DNA from: a virus
Lineage: Duplodnaviria; Caudoviricetes
Reading direction: 5' to 3' (one strand)
DNA: 55,465 bases
IMG/VR virus record: IMGVR_UViG_3300022827_000009
Coordinates: 1 to 55,465 of that record
Shown: one piece after another, positions 1,016 to 49,231 of the stretch
Layout: each line of letters starts with the position of its first letter
Numbering within the stretch: position 1 is the stretch's first letter
Translations under genes and position numbers: made by a program
Notes under the pieces: generated by a model
What the model saw: the letters and a program-made list of their open reading frames with translations, nothing else
Told to the model about the DNA's origin: nothing
The model's database searches: none

Positions 1016-1103
1016 TTAGACTCTTTTCAGCGGTATGATTGGCAGAGTTATCTCAATTGTACCGCAGATAGTGGACCACTACACGAGGAGCTATACTGGA
1101 CCC

Positions 1104-1331
1104 ATGAGTAGTATTCTAGAAAGTACAGAGTTAAACAATCTGGATGCAGAAGAGTCGGGTCCTGAATTCGCTCACTATGCTGAAGCAGCTTCTGTGACCG
1201 AAGGATATATCATGGGTAGGCCCGTAATGGCCATCTGTGGGAAGCTATTTGTACCGTCTAGAGACCCAAATAAATTCCCTATCTGCTCAATTTGCAAAAA
1301 CATTGCGGAAGCACTACTCTTAGATATATAA
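1104..1331 (+). CDS. DUF3039-like actinobacterial protein
   Basis: FAHY...PVMAICGKLFVPSRDP..FPICSICK pattern. Start moved to ATG 1104, which lies 6 nt after TATACT. Confidence 0.75.
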   Translation: MSSILESTELNNLDAEESGPEFAHYAEAASVTEGYIMGRPVMAICGKLFVPSRDPNKFPICSICKNIAEALLLDI

Positions 1332-1357
1332 TAAAAATCAACCACTAGATGTTGACT
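1311..1357 (+). promoter_or_regulatory. Putative tandem NrdR boxes upstream of nrdHIEF
   Basis: CCACTAGATGTTGACT (1342-1357) fits the CwAnATnTwG core. A degenerate copy GCACTACTCTTAGATA starts 31 bp upstream. TATACT -10 follows at 1358-1363. Confidence 0.45.
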
Positions 1358-1449
1358 TATACTGGTTATCCAACCGGTCCTGGCGTCTGCATTTTTGCAA
1401 CAAAAAACGCCAGGATTTGTCATCTCTTGCCATCTGAAAGGTATCAAAC

Positions 1450-1668
1450 ATGGTTACTGTATACACACTGCCTTCATGCGTCCAATGCGACAGCACCAAG
1501 AGAGTTTTGACTAGGAACGGTATTGAGTTTGAAACAATCGACCTAAGTACGGATGAAGCTGCCATGGCGCTCGTAAAAGAGCTTGGCTACAGTGCTGCAC
1601 CTATTGTTGTTGTAGGTGACGACCACTGGAGTGGGTTTCGCATGGATAAAATTTCTGCACTTGTGTAA
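1450..1668 (+). CDS. nrdH: Glutaredoxin-like NrdH
   Basis: CVQC motif and C-terminal WSGFR; first gene of the nrd operon; GAAAGG RBS. Confidence 0.95.
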   Translation: MVTVYTLPSCVQCDSTKRVLTRNGIEFETIDLSTDEAAMALVKELGYSAAPIVVVGDDHWSGFRMDKISALV

Positions 1669-1670
1669 TT

Positions 1671-2087
1671 ATGTACGACATAGTATATTTTTCTAACGTA
1701 TCTAATAATACGCACAGGTTTATGGAAAAGTTAGGCCTTCCAGCTCAGCGGATACCAGTCCGATGGGATGGTGAAGAGCCTTTCATGGCTTACGGAGAGT
1801 ACGTTTTGTTTCTCCCCACTTATGGTGGAGGAAATGACGAGCACACTGTGCCAAAACAGGTCAAGAGTTTTTTGAACATCAAAACCAATAGAGACTTGCT
1901 TCGCGGTGTTGTCGGACTCGGCAATACTAATTTTGGTGACCACTTTTGCGGTGCAGCCGAGATGATTTCAGCAAAAACTGGTGTACCTTTGCTGTATCGC
2001 GTAGAAATAATGGGTACACCGTATGACGTAGAACAAGTAAACGAGAGGTTAAAACAACTGTGGACAACTACAGCTATCACGAATTAA
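1671..2087 (+). CDS. nrdI: Flavodoxin-like NrdI
   Basis: [18 protein letters not shown] and GNTNFG motifs. Confidence 0.95.
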
Positions 2088-4174
2088 ATGCAATGCTCAA
2101 CCTGTACGGCCCTGATGGGGAGATTCAGTTTGACAAAGACAAGGCAGCAGCTCGCGCTTACTTCCTAGACAACATCAACCAGAACACCGTGTTCTTCCAT
2201 TCGCTGGAGGAGAAGCTCGACTACTTAGTTGAGAATGACTACTATGACCTTGGACTCTTAGATAAGTACTCAAAAGAAGAAGTAAAGGACCTGTTTAAGC
2301 AGGCATACGCCTACAAATTCCGTTTTGAATCGTTCCTCGGTGCCTACAAGTTTTACACTCAGTATGCGCTGAAAACCTTTGACGGCGAACGCTACCTAGA
2401 GCGCTTCGAAGACCGCGTTGTAATGAACGCCCTTATGCTAGGGCAAGGCGATGCCGAGCTAGCTAAAAATTTGATCGAGGAAATTATCTCTGGGCGCTTC
2501 CAGCCAGCAACTCCCACTTTTTTAAACGCAGGCAAAGCCCAGCGTGGAGAGTACGTTTCTTGCTTCCTATTGCGCATCGAAGACAACATGGAGTCTATTG
2601 CTCGTGCCGTTAACTCCTCTTTGCAGCTATCAAAGCGTGGCGGTGGTGTTGCCCTAAACCTCTCTAACCTCCGGGAGCAGGGGGCTCCAATCAAGAAGAT
2701 CCAAAATCAGTCTTCTGGAATTATCCCAGTAATGAAGATGCTTGAAGATGCATTCTCGTATGCAAACCAGCTCGGTGCTCGTCAGGGCGCTGGTGCGGTC
2801 TACCTAAACGCTCATCACCCAGATATTATGAGGTTCCTAGACACCAAGAAGGAAAACGCCGATGAGAAGACTCGCATTAAGACTCTATCGATCGGTGTGG
2901 TTATTCCAGACATCACGCTTGAACTAGCTAAAAATGGCGATGATATGTACCTATTCTCACCTTATGACGCTGAGCGCATCTACGGAGTGCCGTTTGGGGA
3001 TATCTCAGTAACTGAGAAGTATCAAGAAATGGTAGACAATGCGGAGATCAAGAAAACTAAGATCTCAGCTCGTGAATTATTTCAGCGTATCGCAGAGCTT
3101 CAGTTTGAGTCTGGATACCCATACATCATGTATGAAGACACCGTAAATGATGCCAACCCTGTAGAGGGCCGCATCAATATGTCTAACCTCTGCTCTGAGA
3201 TTCTGCAGGTGAACACACCTACTACCTATAACAATGACTTGAGTTACGACCAGATTGGTAAGGATATTTCTTGCAACCTGGGCTCTCTAAACATTGCTAA
3301 GGCAATGATGTCACCTGACTTCGAGAAGACCGTTAGAACCGCCATCAAGGCCCTAACAGCAGTGGCTGACATGAGCTACATTGACTCAGTGATGTCCATT
3401 GCCGAAGGTAACAAAAAATCTCGTGCAATTGGACTTGGCCAGATGAACCTTCACGGTTACTTTGGTAAGGAAAGTATGCACTACGGCGACGATGAGTCAA
3501 TTGACTTTACTAGCGTCTACTTTATGACCATTCTATACAACGCTCTAAAAGCGTCCAACGAAATGGCCAAAGAGACCAAGGATCCTTTTGATAACTTCGA
3601 AAACTCTAGCTATGCAAGTGGTGAGTTCTTTAGCAAGTACATTGGAGGCGACTGGGGCCCTAAAACTGACAAGGTTAAAGGAATCTTCGACACTGCTGGA
3701 ATTAAGATTCCAGGAGACTTTGAGTGGACTGAACTCCGCGCTTCGGTAATGGAGCACGGTATCTACAACCAGAACCTTCAGGCTGTTCCGCCAACCGGAT
3801 CGATTTCCTACATCAACAACTCAACAAGCTCGATTCACCCGATTGCGGCAAAGATTGAAATCCGTAAGGAAGGAAAGCTTGGACGTGTCTACTATCCAGC
3901 TCCGTTCCTGACTAACGATAACATGGAGTACTTCACTGACGCCTACGAGATTGGTCCTGAAAAGGTTATCGATGTCTACGCAGCAGCGACTGCCCACGTT
4001 GATCAAGGGCTGTCACTAACATTGTTCTTCAAAGACACCGCAACTACTAGGGATGTCAACAGAGCTCAGATTTACGCATGGAAAAAAGGCATCAAAACTA
4101 TTTACTATATCCGCATCCGCCAAATGGCCCTCGACGGTACTGACGTCGAAGGCTGTGTCAGCTGCATGCTCTAA
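2060..4174 (+). CDS. nrdE: Class Ib ribonucleotide reductase alpha subunit
   Basis: [27 protein letters not shown] and C-terminal CVSC; no ATP cone; no intein or intron visible. Confidence 0.97.
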
Positions 4175-4191
4175 CAGAGAAAGAAAACACT

Positions 4192-47685: not shown

Positions 47686-47850
47686 ATGGTGCCCTGCCCC
47701 TGCGATGACTATAAGAAATTTAAATGCATGGACTGCAGATAACTGCGGGGGTTTTCCTTTTTCCGACACGATAAAAATTAGTTTGCAAATGTGCTTGCTA
47801 TTTTTGCAGGGAGATGCTATACTATCTACACGAACGATGAAAGGGACAAA

Positions 47851-48084
47851 ATGCAAGAGCGAGTTACTTGGGTTGATTACAGTTGGAAAGACTCAGAGGT
47901 ACCTGGAGACACAAAGGCACAAGTTGTGATTCTGAACGACAGCAACAAGTATGAGCAGATGTCTGCGGACGAGACCTTCGATGAGCGTATCTGGTTCTAC
48001 TTCCAAGACGAAGCAGAGTTTCAGCGTGCCTTTGATACAAGCAATGACGAGTTTGAGTTTGTAATTACCAGAGAGGAAAACTAA
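47851..48084 (+). CDS. Small acidic early-type protein
   Basis: TGCTATACT -10 and GAAAGGGA RBS; start set at 47851. Confidence 0.7.
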   Translation: MQERVTWVDYSWKDSEVPGDTKAQVVILNDSNKYEQMSADETFDERIWFYFQDEAEFQRAFDTSNDEFEFVITREEN

Positions 48085-48275
48085 TGAGCAAGGTTATTAG
48101 AGCAAGCATTGTTTTTGAATACTTGGTGGATGGGGATGAAGTCCTAAGTGAACTTACACCCGAAGAACAAATTGAGTATGTCAAAGAAAATGTCGTAGAA
48201 GACATAATGTCTATGGGTTTTGGGAATTCTGATTCCTTACTAGCCGCAATTGAAATCAAAGTGCTAGAGGCATAG
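48084..48275 (+). CDS. Small acidic early-type protein
   Basis: GAGG RBS; TAATG coupling. Confidence 0.65.
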   Translation: MSKVIRASIVFEYLVDGDEVLSELTPEEQIEYVKENVVEDIMSMGFGNSDSLLAAIEIKVLEA

Positions 48276-48322
48276 AAAACTAGTTAGAGAGGGTAAAAAT
48301 GAACGCGCGCCTAGTAAATCGC

Positions 48323-48351
48323 TTGACTAATTAGCGGCTTGCTGCTACTGT
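48323..48351 (+). promoter_or_regulatory. SigA-type early promoter
   Basis: TTGACT-N17-TACTGT with extended TGC. Confidence 0.7.
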
Positions 48352-48379
48352 TGAACTACTAACGAAAGGGAGAAACAAA

Positions 48380-48865
48380 ATGGGATTAGACATGACATTA
48401 TCAGGCAAGCGCTATGTCCGAGGATATGAAGGCTCACCAGAGTCTGAGCAAAAGCTTTACAAAGATACTATGGAGTCACTAGGCCTGACCGGCTTGGGTG
48501 AAGGAACTCATATGTATGTGACGTTCACCGCTATGGACTGGCGTAAATGTTCCGCTGTCCACAACTGGTTCGTTGTAAATGTCCAGGACGGCGAGGACGA
48601 TTGCGGTAGTTACGGAGTGAGCCGTGAGCAAATCGGCGAGCTGATAGACCTATGCGAACGGGTTGCCAAGTCTGGAGACCCAGAGTATGCAGAGGAACAC
48701 TTACCGACGTCTATGGGCTCCTTCTTTGGGTCGACGGAGTATGACGAGTATTACTTCGAACAAATTGACGAGACGGCGAGACGGCTTGCAGAGATACTCA
48801 CACAGCTACCTGAGACCCCAGACTTCTTCACAAACGTCAGACTTGAGTATTCCTCTAGCTGGTAA
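48380..48865 (+). CDS. Conserved phage protein (MGLDM...WRK..AVHNWF...YSSSW type)
   Basis: Recognisable motifs; AAAGGGAGA RBS. Confidence 0.75.
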   Translation: MGLDMTLSGKRYVRGYEGSPESEQKLYKDTMESLGLTGLGEGTHMYVTFTAMDWRKCSAVHNWFVVNVQDGEDDCGSYGVSREQIGELIDLCERVAKSGDPEYAEEHLPTSMGSFFGSTEYDEYYFEQIDETARRLAEILTQLPETPDFFTNVRLEYSSSW

Positions 48866-48934
48866 TAACGGCGTGCAGTTCTTGCGGCGAGCGCCGTCCA
48901 AATAACAGGACGGCGTGCGCTGTATCCTATACTG

Positions 48935-49231
48935 ATGCGCTCACTAGAAGTCCACGTATTTGAAATTGAGACCGATCTCGATCACGCTCTGCGTTCAGGG
49001 ATTGCGTTGCCAGAGCAGTTAGCAATGACGGAGTGTCGCGAATGCGATCTAACTACTGGGATCTGCGATGGAGACTTTGAACCGTTCGTTGTAGTGATTG
49101 ACGAAAATGATCAAGACTGGATCCTCTGCACCGATTGCGCCAGCGCAATATTGGACTATGTCGATACCTACTTCCCTCCAGTGACTCGAAGTCACTTTGT
49201 TGTGGATGATGAAGAGTACGAACCACTCTAA
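48935..49231 (+). CDS. Small acidic Zn-ribbon protein
   Basis: CREC...CTDC; TATCCT-N6-ATG. Confidence 0.65.
   Translation: MRSLEVHVFEIETDLDHALRSGIALPEQLAMTECRECDLTTGICDGDFEPFVVVIDENDQDWILCTDCASAILDYVDTYFPPVTRSHFVVDDEEYEPL

Follow-up and report, generated by a model that had tools for sequence, protein, structure and literature searches.

Does the divide between leaderless and Shine-Dalgarno (SD)-led genes in this phage DNA separate late from early expression, or does it follow from where promoters are placed? The 55,465-nt window, which is the whole stretch of DNA analysed here, covers about one third of the genome of an uncultured lytic-type phage, which would measure roughly 150 kb. It encodes WhiB, DUF3039, DUF7455 and NrdHIEF, and the sequences closest to its NrdF come from Aquiluna and other Microbacteriaceae (85-88% identity). 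WhiB and the 85-88% identity of NrdF to Aquiluna establish an actinobacterial host, predicted to belong to the freshwater Actinomycetota, within the Microbacteriaceae of Aquiluna type.

TAnnnT hexamers lie at a fixed distance from start codons

As an earlier note on this DNA had claimed, a TAnnnT hexamer precedes every start codon that it listed (23/23), with a gap of 6 nt at 19 sites and of 7 nt at four (6519, 13925, 20615 and 38866). Of the start codons, 22 are ATG and one, at 23380, is GTG; the hexamer consensus is TAGA(A/C)T (Table 1). Twenty-one of the 23 starts are the first ATG, GTG or TTG of the mechanically listed open reading frame (ORF); the ATGs at 1104 and 5258 lie inside ORFs opening at 1035 and 5231, respectively, and the start of the former gene is uncertain because its ORF also opens at ATG 1035.

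The positional enrichment test called for in the earlier note was carried out on 95 ORFs, which were called by a first-start-codon rule and a codon-usage score whose underlying model had been fitted to this very DNA. TAnnnT was found at gap 6 in 19 of the 95 genes compared to 1.5 expected (binomial P = 9×10−16) and at gap 7 in 4 of 95, compared to 1.5 expected per gap, while the remaining gaps within 0-39 hold 0-8 genes each; about 3 of the 23 matches at gaps 6 and 7 in this call correspond to chance expectation. Throughout the sequence, TAnnnT-N6-ATG occurs 41 times (28.1 ± 6.0 in shuffled sequences, 3 of 100 of which reach 41) and TAnnnT-N7-ATG 42 times (28.8 ± 5.5 in shuffles). With only a mild excess over the whole sequence, the signal is one of position relative to gene starts and not a global one.

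Table 1. Predicted leaderless-type sites, leadered promoters and structured RNAs. Fractions are leaderless-type homologue contexts.
Positions	Strand	Elements	Gene and remarks
1092-1106	+	TATACT-N6-ATG	DUF3039 gene; start uncertain
5246-5260	+	TATACT-N6-ATG	heads unit from small ORF to WhiB; start directly after nrdF terminator hairpin; 1/4
6140-6154	+	TATTAT-N6-ATG, TGGACA at 17 bp	6/9
6506-6521	+	TAGTAT-N7-ATG	glycosyltransferase and cytidylyltransferase unit
7954-7968	+	TACCCT-N6-ATG (weak hexamer)	subtilase; 2/2
9498-9512	+	TTGACC-17-TACAAT-N6-ATG	1/1
11697-11711	-	TAGAAT-N6-ATG	2OG-Fe(II) oxygenase pair; divergent from 11736 gene; 7/12
11724-11738	+	TAGACT-N6-ATG	carbamoyltransferase and ThyX unit; 12/49
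13912-13927	+	TACACT-N7-ATG	2OG-Fe(II) oxygenase; 3/5
15874-15888	-	TAGGCT-N6-ATG	2OG-Fe(II) oxygenase
20602-20617	+	TTGATA-17-(TGA)TACTGT-N7-ATG	504-aa protein
22135-22149	+	(TGG)TAGAAT-N6-ATG	17 nt after preceding gene
23363-23382	-/+	TAGAAT-N6-ATG (-, start 23365); TAGAAT-N6-GTG (+, start 23380)	back-to-back pair; minus-strand gene 3/6
25762-25776	+	TAGGAT-N6-ATG	
36002-36016	+	(TGA)TAAAAT-N6-ATG	0/1
38574-38588	-	(TGA)TAAACT-N6-ATG	73-aa ORF, unsupported
38853-38868	+	TTGACA-17-TAGTGT-N7-ATG	HNH-like protein
39568-39582	+	TATACT-N6-ATG	1/1
40032-40046	-	TACACT-N6-ATG	single gene; 6/7
40541-40555	+	(TGC)TAGATT-N6-ATG	heads five-gene unit 40553-42706; orthologue in relative G001 has TTGACA-17-CATACT-N6-ATG
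45760-45774	+	TAGGAT-N6-ATG	endolysin-like protein; 11/20
48923-48937	+	TATCCT-N6-ATG	doubtful; 4/21
48323-48382	+	TTGACT-17-TACTGT, 28-nt A-rich leader with AAAGGGAGAA	ATG 48380
49367-49402	+	(TGC)TACTGT, 27-nt leader with AAAAGGAGAGAGA	ATG 49400
50559-50638	+	TTGACA-17-TTGTAT, 48-nt leader ending ACACGAAACGAAAGGGGAAGTCAA	ATG 50636; leader motif conserved in orthologues of 45-53% identity
51248-51323	+	TTGACA-16-(TGG)CATAAT, leader with AAAGGGAGA	ATG 51321, AAA ATPase; relatives at 71-76% identity retain both promoter and leader
52450-52522	+	TTGACA-18-CATAAT, leader with AAAGGGAGA	ATG 52520, 613-aa protein
54652-54716	+	TAGTAT (TAGGAT in relatives), ~50-nt leader, small hairpin, G-run SD AAAGGGGGGA	ATG 54714
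55139-55198	+	TTGCAA-17-TTAGAT, 28-nt leader with AAAAGGGAGA	ATG 55196
38695-38819	+	TATAAT box, three hairpins (z = -5.5), UUCUCCCUU, U run after last hairpin	candidate small RNA
42764-42801	+	hairpin, loop holding GGGAGAGG	loop complementary to 43.3-kb loop
43285-43332	+	hairpin, loop CAGUCCUCUCCCCAGU	loop invariant, stems co-vary in 12 related phage contexts
54378-54493	+	two-domain RNA	conserved; just 3' of 613-aa gene

Some members of the list are weak. The small ORFs at 38576(-), 39580 and 36014 are weakly supported gene calls; no homologue of the first, which would head a minus-strand unit ending with a 471-aa PG-binding protein, was found in the related-phage DNA compared. Relatives of the 48935 gene mostly use a GTG start 21 nt upstream of the equivalent point, without the hexamer. 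Three additional candidates are probably chance matches or wrong: 30413 and 35429 have poor hexamers, and the start proposed at 47791 is more likely ATG 47851, behind TTGCTA-17-TATACT and an SD-bearing leader. Genes predicted to be leaderless number about 19-22 in the window.

The hexamers resemble promoters and head transcription units

The dinucleotide TG occupies positions -15/-14 at 8 of 26 leaderless sites compared to 5.1% of all TAnnnT sites (P = 3×10−5), and 4 of 26 match the -35 box at five or more of its six positions, compared to 1.8% (P = 1×10−3). Genes of leaderless type make up 21 of 48 unit-first genes and 5 of 46 internal genes (Fisher P = 4.5×10−4), so that the main divide is place in the transcription unit. 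At 11 of the 23 listed sites the hexamer supplies an in-frame TAG or TAA, which leaves the ORF no possibility of opening further upstream. The hexamers of the genes at 23365(-) and 23380(+) share 2 bp inside the palindrome TAGAATTCTA, with predicted starts 15 bp apart. Ten of the 12 starts at strand switches are of leaderless type and some genes swap between leaderless and SD-led among relatives, in agreement with the idea that accessory genes form self-contained cassettes able to sit in either orientation.

The same spacing recurs in related phages. At 80 related loci, gap-6 hexamers precede 27 of 122 genes in one set, where 2.2 would be expected, and 25 of 224 in another (6.7 expected), and in the complete 152-kb relative G004 they precede 25 of 192 (3.15 expected). 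Comparison of distinct homologue contexts, which differ in their surrounding sequence, showed that homologues retain hexamer and spacing and that the class is stable per gene, with leaderless-type contexts at 57/139 for the listed genes versus 25/259 for other genes. Conservation is partial, as seen at the carbamoyltransferase (12/49 contexts), whose five closest loci (76% identity) share one common upstream sequence that is not of leaderless type. Position, TG and -35 enrichment and conservation across relatives together support a role of the hexamers as -10 promoter elements positioned to yield leaderless mRNAs.

SD-led genes include a conserved leadered module

Most genes beyond 47.4 kb had been described as SD-led with A-rich leaders. 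Of the 11 genes called there, 9 are SD-led, and the class with A-rich leaders is conserved. The exact motif AAGGGAG precedes four of them (48380, 51321, 52520 and 55196) and close variants occur at 49400, 50636 and 54714. Relatives at 45-76% protein identity retain the leadered promoters together with their leaders, and seven genes of this module are of leaderless type in none of 73 homologue contexts.

Structured RNAs may act locally on SD regions

RNAs near 38.7, 43.3 and 54.5 kb had been proposed to act against ribosome-binding sites (RBSs). The last of these is a conserved structured RNA. At 54378-54493 it is predicted to form a C-rich loop closed by two stems, one outer and one inner, followed by a long hairpin with loop UUUACCCCCUUUUU; compensatory changes affect 8 of the 13 pairs of this second hairpin, and 15 distinct sequences, each folded alone, give the same two-domain shape. 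Its loops match SD regions of neighbouring leadered genes of the same locus over 7-11 nt, while loop matches of at least 8 nt occur in 0-4% of control windows from coding sequence. The observed sum of own-locus pairing was reached by 5 of 20,000 shuffled loop-to-locus permutations, a test confounded by relatedness, as cross-locus loop matches also span 7-11 nt. The 43.3-kb RNA is also a conserved hairpin, but its conserved partner is predicted to be a G-rich hairpin loop upstream and not RBSs in general. Relatives carry an equivalent G-loop hairpin, which precedes their C-loop hairpin by 0.46-1.25 kb. No relative of the 38.7-kb candidate was found among 256 loci. In duplex energy against all start regions (top-10 mean), the 38.7-kb RNA beats 28 of 30 shuffles and the 43.3-kb RNA 16 of 30. 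The two conserved hairpin RNAs with C-rich loops may act locally on SD regions.

Gene classes in a relative do not support equating SD-led with early

The earlier note had equated SD-led with early genes, an assignment that G004 does not support. None of the 19 genes in its first 20 kb is of leaderless type, and this region encodes the tape measure, Dit, minor tail and tail spike proteins together with DNA polymerase, helicase, exonuclease, Sak4 and SSB, the tail and replication genes being SD-led or coupled. Its portal and major tail genes also carry SD sites, while its terminase large subunit gene has TAGAAT-N6-ATG.

Promoter placement as the likely basis of the two regimes

We consider it probable that host-type promoters abut the start codons of unit-first genes, making them leaderless, and that the two regimes reflect promoter placement and unit position and not an early/late partition. 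A promoter of the host's principal-sigma type would comprise a TAnnnT -10 box ending 6-7 nt before the start, often with TG at -15/-14 and usually without a -35 box. Since the box ends at this distance, RNA polymerase would be expected to initiate at the A of the start codon ATG and ribosomes to begin on the 5'-terminal AUG without SD pairing, as is common in actinobacteria. Transcription starts, leaderless translation and the polymerase holoenzyme reading the boxes are predicted here from sequence. Leaderless genes would head short transcription units on either strand, many being accessory cassettes (2OG-Fe(II) oxygenases, carbamoyltransferase, glycosyltransferase, lysis genes). SD-led genes would be of two kinds, those within operons and those of the conserved 48-55 kb module (AAA ATPase, 613-aa protein and neighbours), each of the latter with a strong -35 and -10 promoter, a 27-50-nt A/C-rich leader and an extended SD (ACGAAAGGGAG or ACGAAAGGGGG).

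Eleven of the 23 listed hexamers open with an in-frame TAG or TAA, and whole-sequence pattern counts are only ~1.5 times the shuffle mean; both raise the suspicion that the pattern arose by chance or from calling ORFs from stop to first start. This has virtually no likelihood, as the gap profile contradicts it: gaps 0, 3 and 9, which would likewise be in frame, hold 4, 1 and 0 genes compared to 19 at gap 6, so the peak does not come from ORF closure by TAG or TAA. The other 12 hexamers begin with TAT or TAC or sit at gap 7 and are not in-frame stops, TG and -35 elements are over-represented at the proper distance, and the peak recurs in independent relatives and at orthologous genes. Alternatively, the divide could be transcriptional, the leadered -35 promoters being strong and read by host factors only, the -10-only leaderless ones needing or being modulated by a factor acting on sigma-A region 4, and leaderlessness a by-product of compact cassettes. 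A phage-encoded factor may read the leaderless boxes, and the phage has a WhiB-like protein (5443-5763), encoded inside the leaderless unit headed at 5258; pull-down assays showed binding of sigma-A region 4 by three Wbl proteins of phages (PMC13013590). Consistent with such a divide, the conserved module promoters have TTGACA, TTGACT or TTGCAA at 16-18 bp, and -35 matches are confined to the 4 of 26 leaderless sites given above. However, no common motif beyond TGn was found upstream of the leaderless hexamers, and the majority of host promoters in actinobacteria have no -35 box either, so that an extra factor is unnecessary; we regard this explanation as unlikely.

The global RNA-based switch put forward in the earlier note, in which anti-SD-loop RNAs of the phage silence SD-led (early) genes and spare the leaderless (late) mRNAs, gains from the existence of the two conserved C-rich-loop RNAs and from the same-locus SD matches of the 54.4-kb loops with their rare own-locus permutation score. 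There is also a precedent in mycobacterial B11/6C, the two C-rich loops of which are described as repressing a 5' UTR carrying a six-G run (PMC10470900). The gene classes in G004 do not fit it, leaderless-type genes serve varied functions (nucleotide metabolism, oxygenases, lysis), the conserved partner predicted for the 43.3-kb loop is a G-loop hairpin and not RBSs in general, the 38.7-kb candidate stands without a relative, the duplex-energy test is weak, and the permutation result is confounded as noted. The switch is therefore not supported, and we hold it to be very improbable.

Promoters abutting start codons, the reading that we favour, have counterparts in known systems. Leaderless genes, which make up more than 20% of Actinobacteria genes, are reported to be marked by TA-like signals some 10 bp upstream of the start (PMC3160421). 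Closer to phages, the Cluster O mycobacteriophages are described as having predicted divergent SigA-like promoters that place +1 on the start codon's first base (PMC4351075).

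The phage, its gene content and its probable host

The record is linear (55,465 b), has a G+C content of ~47% and was estimated by CheckV to be 34% complete; records of related phages extend to 152-154 kb with terminal repeats, and we read the window as about one third of a large phage infecting freshwater Actinomycetota. Pfam matches comprise WhiB, DUF3039, DUF7455, NrdH/I/E/F, ThyX, dUTPase, PhoH-PIN, a serine recombinase and six 2OG-Fe(II) oxygenase-type proteins, to which PHROGs added two endolysin-like proteins and tail-fibre genes at the left end. NrdF shares 85-88% identity with proteins of Aquiluna and other Microbacteriaceae (among the 80 loci kept). 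Together with WhiB, DUF3039 and DUF7455, this identity points to an actinobacterial host, a lineage that translates leaderless mRNA efficiently. Megablast against the phage collection returned no match to the window, and single-protein locus searches with its 504-aa and 471-aa proteins returned no relatives. The 2OG-Fe(II) oxygenase paralogues (about six in the window, at 10045-15876 and 44584-45303) number at least seven in the complete 152,411-b relative G004 (40-49 kb), and several of their genes are single-gene cassettes of the leaderless type defined below, on both strands. Two leaderless-type genes flank a single tRNA-like gene called by ARAGORN (6405-6481), which has no assigned type and an anticodon of four letters (ttta).

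A TAnnnT hexamer lies at a fixed distance from start codons

The earlier note had claimed that a TAnnnT hexamer closely precedes 23 gene starts, and all 23 carry it, with a gap to the start codon of 6 nt at 19 sites and 7 nt at 4. Such a gap leaves no space for a Shine-Dalgarno (SD) sequence and would make the mRNA begin at the start codon (ATG in 22 cases, GTG in one); we refer to this arrangement as leaderless-type. Because the motif must not steer the choice of start, we defined 95 genes by codon-usage score and placed each start at the first ATG, GTG or TTG past the upstream stop; the first start codon of the mechanically listed ORF was the listed start in 21 of the 23 cases. The positional enrichment that had been proposed as a check is clear in this set: TAnnnT stands at gap 6 in 19 of 95 genes and at gap 7 in 4, compared to 1.5 expected per gap (binomial P = 9e-16 for the gap-6 peak). 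The profile has one sharp peak, gaps 0-5 and 8-26 holding 0-5 genes apiece. As TAG and TAA open many hexamers, stop codons closing ORFs might have produced the peak; however, the other in-frame gaps, 0, 3 and 9, hold only 4, 1 and 0 genes, and we therefore rejected this explanation. Genome-wide pattern counts were only slightly above those of shuffled sequence (41 vs 28.1 and 42 vs 28.8), hence the signal is positional and resides at gene starts. The hexamer observation in the window is real.

Three further candidates were not retained as leaderless. For 47791 we prefer the ATG at 47851, which lies behind TTGCTA-17-TATACT and a leader of the kind described below for the SD-led module, while the hexamers at 30413 and 35429 are poor and lie inside operons.

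Promoter features and transcription units

We aligned 26 sites, namely the 23 gap-6/7 hits of the 95-gene call plus 1104, 5258 and 38576(-). The hexamer reads T-A-(G 12)-(A 14)-(A 11/C 11)-T. Features of the principal, sigma-70 type sigma factor are enriched upstream: TG at -15/-14 occurs at 8 of 26 sites compared to 5.1% of all 1,760 TAnnnT sites, and a -35 match of at least 5/6 at 16-18 bp at 4 of 26 compared to 1.8%. Leaderless-type starts are concentrated at the heads of transcription units, a unit-first gene being one that follows a gap of at least 25 nt or a strand switch (21 of 48 unit-first genes vs 5 of 46 internal genes, Fisher P = 4.5e-4). Ten of the 12 strand-switch starts are leaderless-type, and 5258 directly follows the nrdF terminator hairpin. 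Two divergent pairs are leaderless-type on both strands (see table). In the second, the -10 boxes overlap, so that the predicted starts of 23365(-) and 23380(+) lie 15 bp apart on opposite strands; judging from this overlap, RNA polymerase could not occupy both promoters together.

Conservation in relatives

Applying the same mechanical gene-calling rule to 80 loci fetched via the carbamoyltransferase, we found the gap-6 hexamer at 27 of 122 genes in loci with a G+C content of at least 42% and at 25 of 224 in loci of lower G+C. In G004, it precedes 25 of 192 genes compared to 3.15 expected; the leaderless class as a whole numbers 29 genes. For individual genes, we compared homologue contexts after dropping those of at least 95% identity and matches starting after residue 15, and identical contexts were counted once. 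The context is leaderless-type in 57 of 139 cases for the listed genes vs 25 of 259 for other genes. Hexamer and spacing persist while the flanking sequence changes between contexts, as selection on the promoter-to-start distance predicts. These statistics and the conservation across relatives support the leaderless reading well.

The arrangement is not fixed gene by gene. Two genes that are SD-led in the window have leaderless-type contexts in relatives (10045, 7/16; thyX, 2/3), and the orthologue of 40553 in the 129.6-kb relative G001 has TTGACA-17-CATACT-N6-ATG, a variant missed by the TAnnnT rule. Only 12 of 49 carbamoyltransferase contexts are leaderless-type, and the five closest loci, which share one common upstream sequence, are not. 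Start 48935 is leaderless-type in only 4 of 21 contexts; relatives open at a GTG that follows a conserved GC-rich hairpin, and in the window the ancestral GTGCGC is followed by 21 additional bases that supply a TATCCT box together with a new start, ATGCGC (48914-48937, compared to L082-L090 and L114). This gene may recently have exchanged a GTG start behind a hairpin for a leaderless one. No homologue of 38576(-) was found in the related DNA compared, and the 36-47 kb region of G001 is too mosaic for site-by-site comparison.

The proposal that accessory genes form self-contained cassettes also holds: they have predicted promoters of their own, and their context varies among relatives. We infer transcription starts, translation mode and any RNA regulation throughout from DNA sequence.

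A conserved SD-led module with leaders

As the earlier note had stated for genes past 47.4 kb, most are SD-led (9 of 11); seven of these nine have their own promoter and leader. The leaders of these seven are 27-50 nt long, A- and C-rich, end in AAAGGGAGA or AAAGGGGG and form repeat families within the window. The module, which includes an AAA ATPase gene (51321) and a gene for a 613-aa protein (52520), is syntenic in 40 loci fetched via the ATPase, and both the promoter and the leader motif (ACACGAAAGGG) are conserved at only 45-76% protein identity. None of 73 contexts of seven module genes is leaderless-type in relatives, and 3 of 33 are for 52520. A conserved leadered module that is never or rarely leaderless implies that two stable designs exist.

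A T-rich repeat, GTATTCATTTTTTCTTGCA, lies upstream of leadered promoters at 49223-49256, 50486-50519 and 54576-54609, with a weaker copy at 49332-49365; GTAT(T/C)CA(C/T)TTTTTT-like words occupy equivalent positions in relatives, and the repeat may be a UP-like element or an operator. Elsewhere, at 43367-43395, TTGACT-17-TAGAAT is conserved (TTGACA-17-TAGAAT in G001), its -10 box overlapping codons 2-3 of a 317-aa ORF whose SD lies within the spacer; either the promoter is internal to the ORF or the ORF begins at another position.

Predicted promoters, gene starts and structured RNAs in the window, with loop matches and related loci.
Feature	Position or locus	Sequence	Remarks
Leaderless-type start	6152		6/9 contexts leaderless-type in relatives
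Leaderless-type start	9510	TTGACC-17-TACAAT-N6-ATG	example with -35 box
Leaderless-type start	11699(-)		7/12 contexts leaderless-type in relatives
Divergent pair 1	11699(-)/11736(+)		both leaderless-type
Divergent pair 2	23365(-)/23380(+), 23363-23382	TAGAATTCTA	opposed TAGAAT -10 boxes overlap in this palindrome
Leaderless-type start	38866	TTGACA-17-TAGTGT-N7-ATG	example with -35 box
Leaderless-type start	40034(-)		6/7 contexts leaderless-type in relatives
Leaderless-type start	45772		11/20 contexts leaderless-type in relatives
Leadered promoter	48380	TTGACT-17-TACTGT	
Leadered promoter	49400	(TGC)TACTGT	
Leadered promoter	50636	TTGACA-17-TTGTAT	
Leadered promoter	51321	TTGACA-16-CATAAT	
Leadered promoter	52520	TTGACA-18-CATAAT	
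Leadered promoter	54714	TAGTAT	
Leadered promoter	55196	TTGCAA-17-TTAGAT	
Candidate stand-alone small RNA	38695-38819		TATAAT box, three hairpins, U-tailed terminator, fold z = -5.5
G-loop partner hairpin	42764-42801		leader of small HTH gene
C-loop hairpin	43285-43332	CCUCUCCCC	core of invariant 15-16-nt loop
Loci with 43.3-kb-type hairpin	L129, L136, L140, L142, L143, L145, L146, L153, L162, L166, L168, L172		
Two-domain structured RNA	54378-54493		just past stop of 613-aa gene
Loop vs SD region, 54.4-kb RNA	L092	CCTTTCCAAAA vs TTTTGGAAAGG	
Loop vs SD region, 54.4-kb RNA	L116	TTGTCCTTTC vs GAAAGGACAA	

Structured RNAs and the SD regions of the module

The earlier note had proposed an early-to-late switch resting on anti-RBS RNAs at 38.7, 43.3 and 54.5 kb, and for this reason we examined all three candidates. 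The last of them is an RNA at 54.4 kb whose loops match local SD regions. An equivalent element lies ~10-20 nt past the stop of the 613-aa orthologue in related loci (L082-L096, L114, L116-L118 and L121). The 15 distinct sequences compared (the window and 14 relatives, the 613-aa protein being 47-99% identical) all fold singly into one shape, with an outer and an inner stem around a C-rich loop and, after these, a long hairpin (hairpin 2) whose loop is C/U-rich. At least 4 consecutive C occur in the first loop of 14 of the 15 sequences and in the second loop of 11; in the window itself, the first loop is degenerate. RNAalifold recovered only hairpin 2, in which 8 of 13 pairs show compensatory changes, because the MAFFT alignment was poor in the 5′ half; the outer stem is based on single-sequence folds and inspection of the sequences. 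Searching for 6C, whose Rfam accession we take to be RF01066, gave no match at E up to 10 (window 54340-54720 and L085 7000-7500), and rli22 of the LhrC clan scored below threshold (24.3 bits compared to a gathering score of 80, E = 0.077). Across the whole window, no Rfam family reached its gathering score, and matches around 38.7, 43.3 and 54.5 kb were sub-threshold and at chance level.

The loops of the 54.4-kb RNA are complementary over 7-11 nt to SD regions of the same locus, often those of the ATPase gene or the 613-aa gene, or that of the next gene. Complementarity of at least 8 nt occurs in 0-4% of random coding windows. Own-locus matches exceeded those of shuffled assignments (5 of 20,000 permutations), a comparison confounded by relatedness and in which cross-locus matches are also long. 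We counted exact complementarity after dropping a duplex-energy model, in which pairings of the candidate RNAs with all start regions were long and loop-ridden and contrasted little with those of shuffled RNAs. In the mycobacterial sRNA B11/6C, C-rich loops can act as repressors of a 5′ UTR bearing six consecutive G (PMC10470900), a precedent that makes local control of the leadered module by the 54.4-kb RNA plausible.

The 15-nt loop core of the 43.3-kb hairpin was found in 49 IMG/VR stretches representing 38 distinct contexts; in 12 of these, all from this phage group and including G001, it is the loop of a hairpin of 13-17 bp, and all the stems differ and fully co-vary. It has a conserved partner in each genome, another hairpin located 0.46-1.25 kb upstream, with GGGAGAG(G) in its loop. 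The two look like a specific loop-loop pair (a candidate kissing-loop regulatory pair), not a general anti-RBS RNA. Between them, an 82-aa HTH (excisionase/MerR-like) gene at 42863-43111, with SD AGGAGAGG, was absent from the mechanical gene call; upstream, a promoter (TTGCGT-17-TAGGTT) is followed by a terminator-like hairpin and T run (~42806-42850), a layout that appears attenuator-like. The 38.7-kb candidate sits between divergent leaderless-type genes, and its intergenic region had no blastn match in 256 loci (1.59 Mb). The same search found no match to a gene-poor stretch of 518 nt at 40035-40552, where SD-like words (GGAGGGAAAGGTAGGGAAGGTAAAAGGGGG) follow one another in runs and TTGATAATA forms inverted repeats; G strongly exceeds C there (skew of 0.27 in the 40-42 kb bin).

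Promoter placement or a temporal switch

If the two regimes separated early from late genes, the complete relative should divide accordingly. Its 0-20 kb region, which encodes the tape measure, Dit, minor tail and tail spike proteins and then DNA polymerase, helicase, exonuclease, Sak4 and SSB, has no leaderless-type start among 19. The proportion is 3 of 38 at 20-60 kb (tail-fibre and oxygenase arm), 19 of 83 in the accessory region (60-110 kb) and 7 of 52 at 110-152 kb. In the latter region, the terminase large subunit gene has TAGAAT-N6-ATG and is preceded by two further leaderless-type genes, while the portal and major tail genes have SD sites. Late virion genes therefore use both modes, with a leaderless-type first gene and SD-led followers, and a late general anti-SD shut-off would strike virion genes. 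A global early-to-late selective translational switch is thus not supported, and we conclude that the two regimes follow promoter placement and unit position, not time.

A narrower version would confine RNA control to the leadered module. The two-domain RNA 3′ of the 613-aa gene, and the 43.3-kb invariant-loop hairpin with its G-loop partner, would pair through C-rich loops with extended G-rich SD or leader motifs and tune or shut translation in the 6C/LhrC manner; the ~20 leaderless cassettes, lacking a 5′ UTR as a pairing target, would be exempt. We regard it as improbable that the C-rich-loop RNAs act on the module's SD regions and that the leaderless genes are exempt by design. If true, it would amount to class-selective translational control inside a phage genome, with two expression designs, one of them policed by RNA.

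Comparison with known systems

Leaderless architecture as such is ordinary in Actinobacteria, the phylum of the inferred host. Zheng et al. (PMC3160421) proposed in 2011 that TA-like signals ~10 bp before the start mark leaderless genes, and put these at more than 20% of genes in Actinobacteria. TA-led genes of Actinobacteria and Deinococcus-Thermus resemble those of the window in having a -10 box near the start, no SD and AUG or GUG, and the former phylum is that of the window's inferred host; the share affected, about one quarter (23/95), is also like that of actinobacterial TA-led genes. The window's genes differ in being phage genes, dense per unit (21/48 unit-first), with predicted starts. 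Transcription start sites have reportedly been mapped by Cortes (2013) and Shell (2015).

Within a partial library, we found no paper on leaderless promoters in phages of freshwater actinobacteria. The present predictions fix start codons and transcription units for ~20 genes of an uncultured lake phage, and in phages of low-GC freshwater actinobacteria, starts of this kind will be misplaced by gene callers for which an RBS is obligatory. Among phages, Cluster O mycobacteriophages have predicted SigA-like promoters, divergent pairs included, whose +1 falls on the start codon (PMC4351075). Divergent leaderless pairs and a reverse-oriented operon gene with its own leaderless promoter are common to both, all predicted. 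Cluster O has ~8 such promoters in a high-GC siphovirus, whereas the window has ~20 in 55 kb of a ~150-kb phage of 47% GC, and one pair with overlapping -10 boxes and starts 15 bp apart.

Phage morons are autonomous cassettes of promoter, gene and terminator. The window's cassettes likewise consist of single accessory genes, in both orientations, each with a predicted promoter of its own, and relatives differ in whether and in what context they carry these genes; in contrast to morons, the start codon follows the promoter directly, so that neither leader nor RBS is required. Accessory genes can move in this very compact form, a promoter plus an ORF, in either orientation.

The leadered module and its adjoining C-loop RNAs offer an entry point to phage-encoded regulatory RNAs in Actinomycetota. 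In the c4 antisense RNA of phages P1 and P7, loop sequences are complementary to sites in a nearby message from the same region; the likeness to the window's RNAs is confined to the proposed logic. There are also 6C/B11 and Listeria LhrC/rli22 (PMC10470900): the 54.4-kb RNA resembles these in its two C-rich-loop stem-loops, SD-complementary over 7-11 nt, and the gene next to it has a G-run SD, as targets of the 6C/LhrC type are G-rich SD regions. Unlike them, it lies in the 3′ region of a phage operon and has no Rfam membership, and its predicted structure suggests a 6C/LhrC-like design outside both families.
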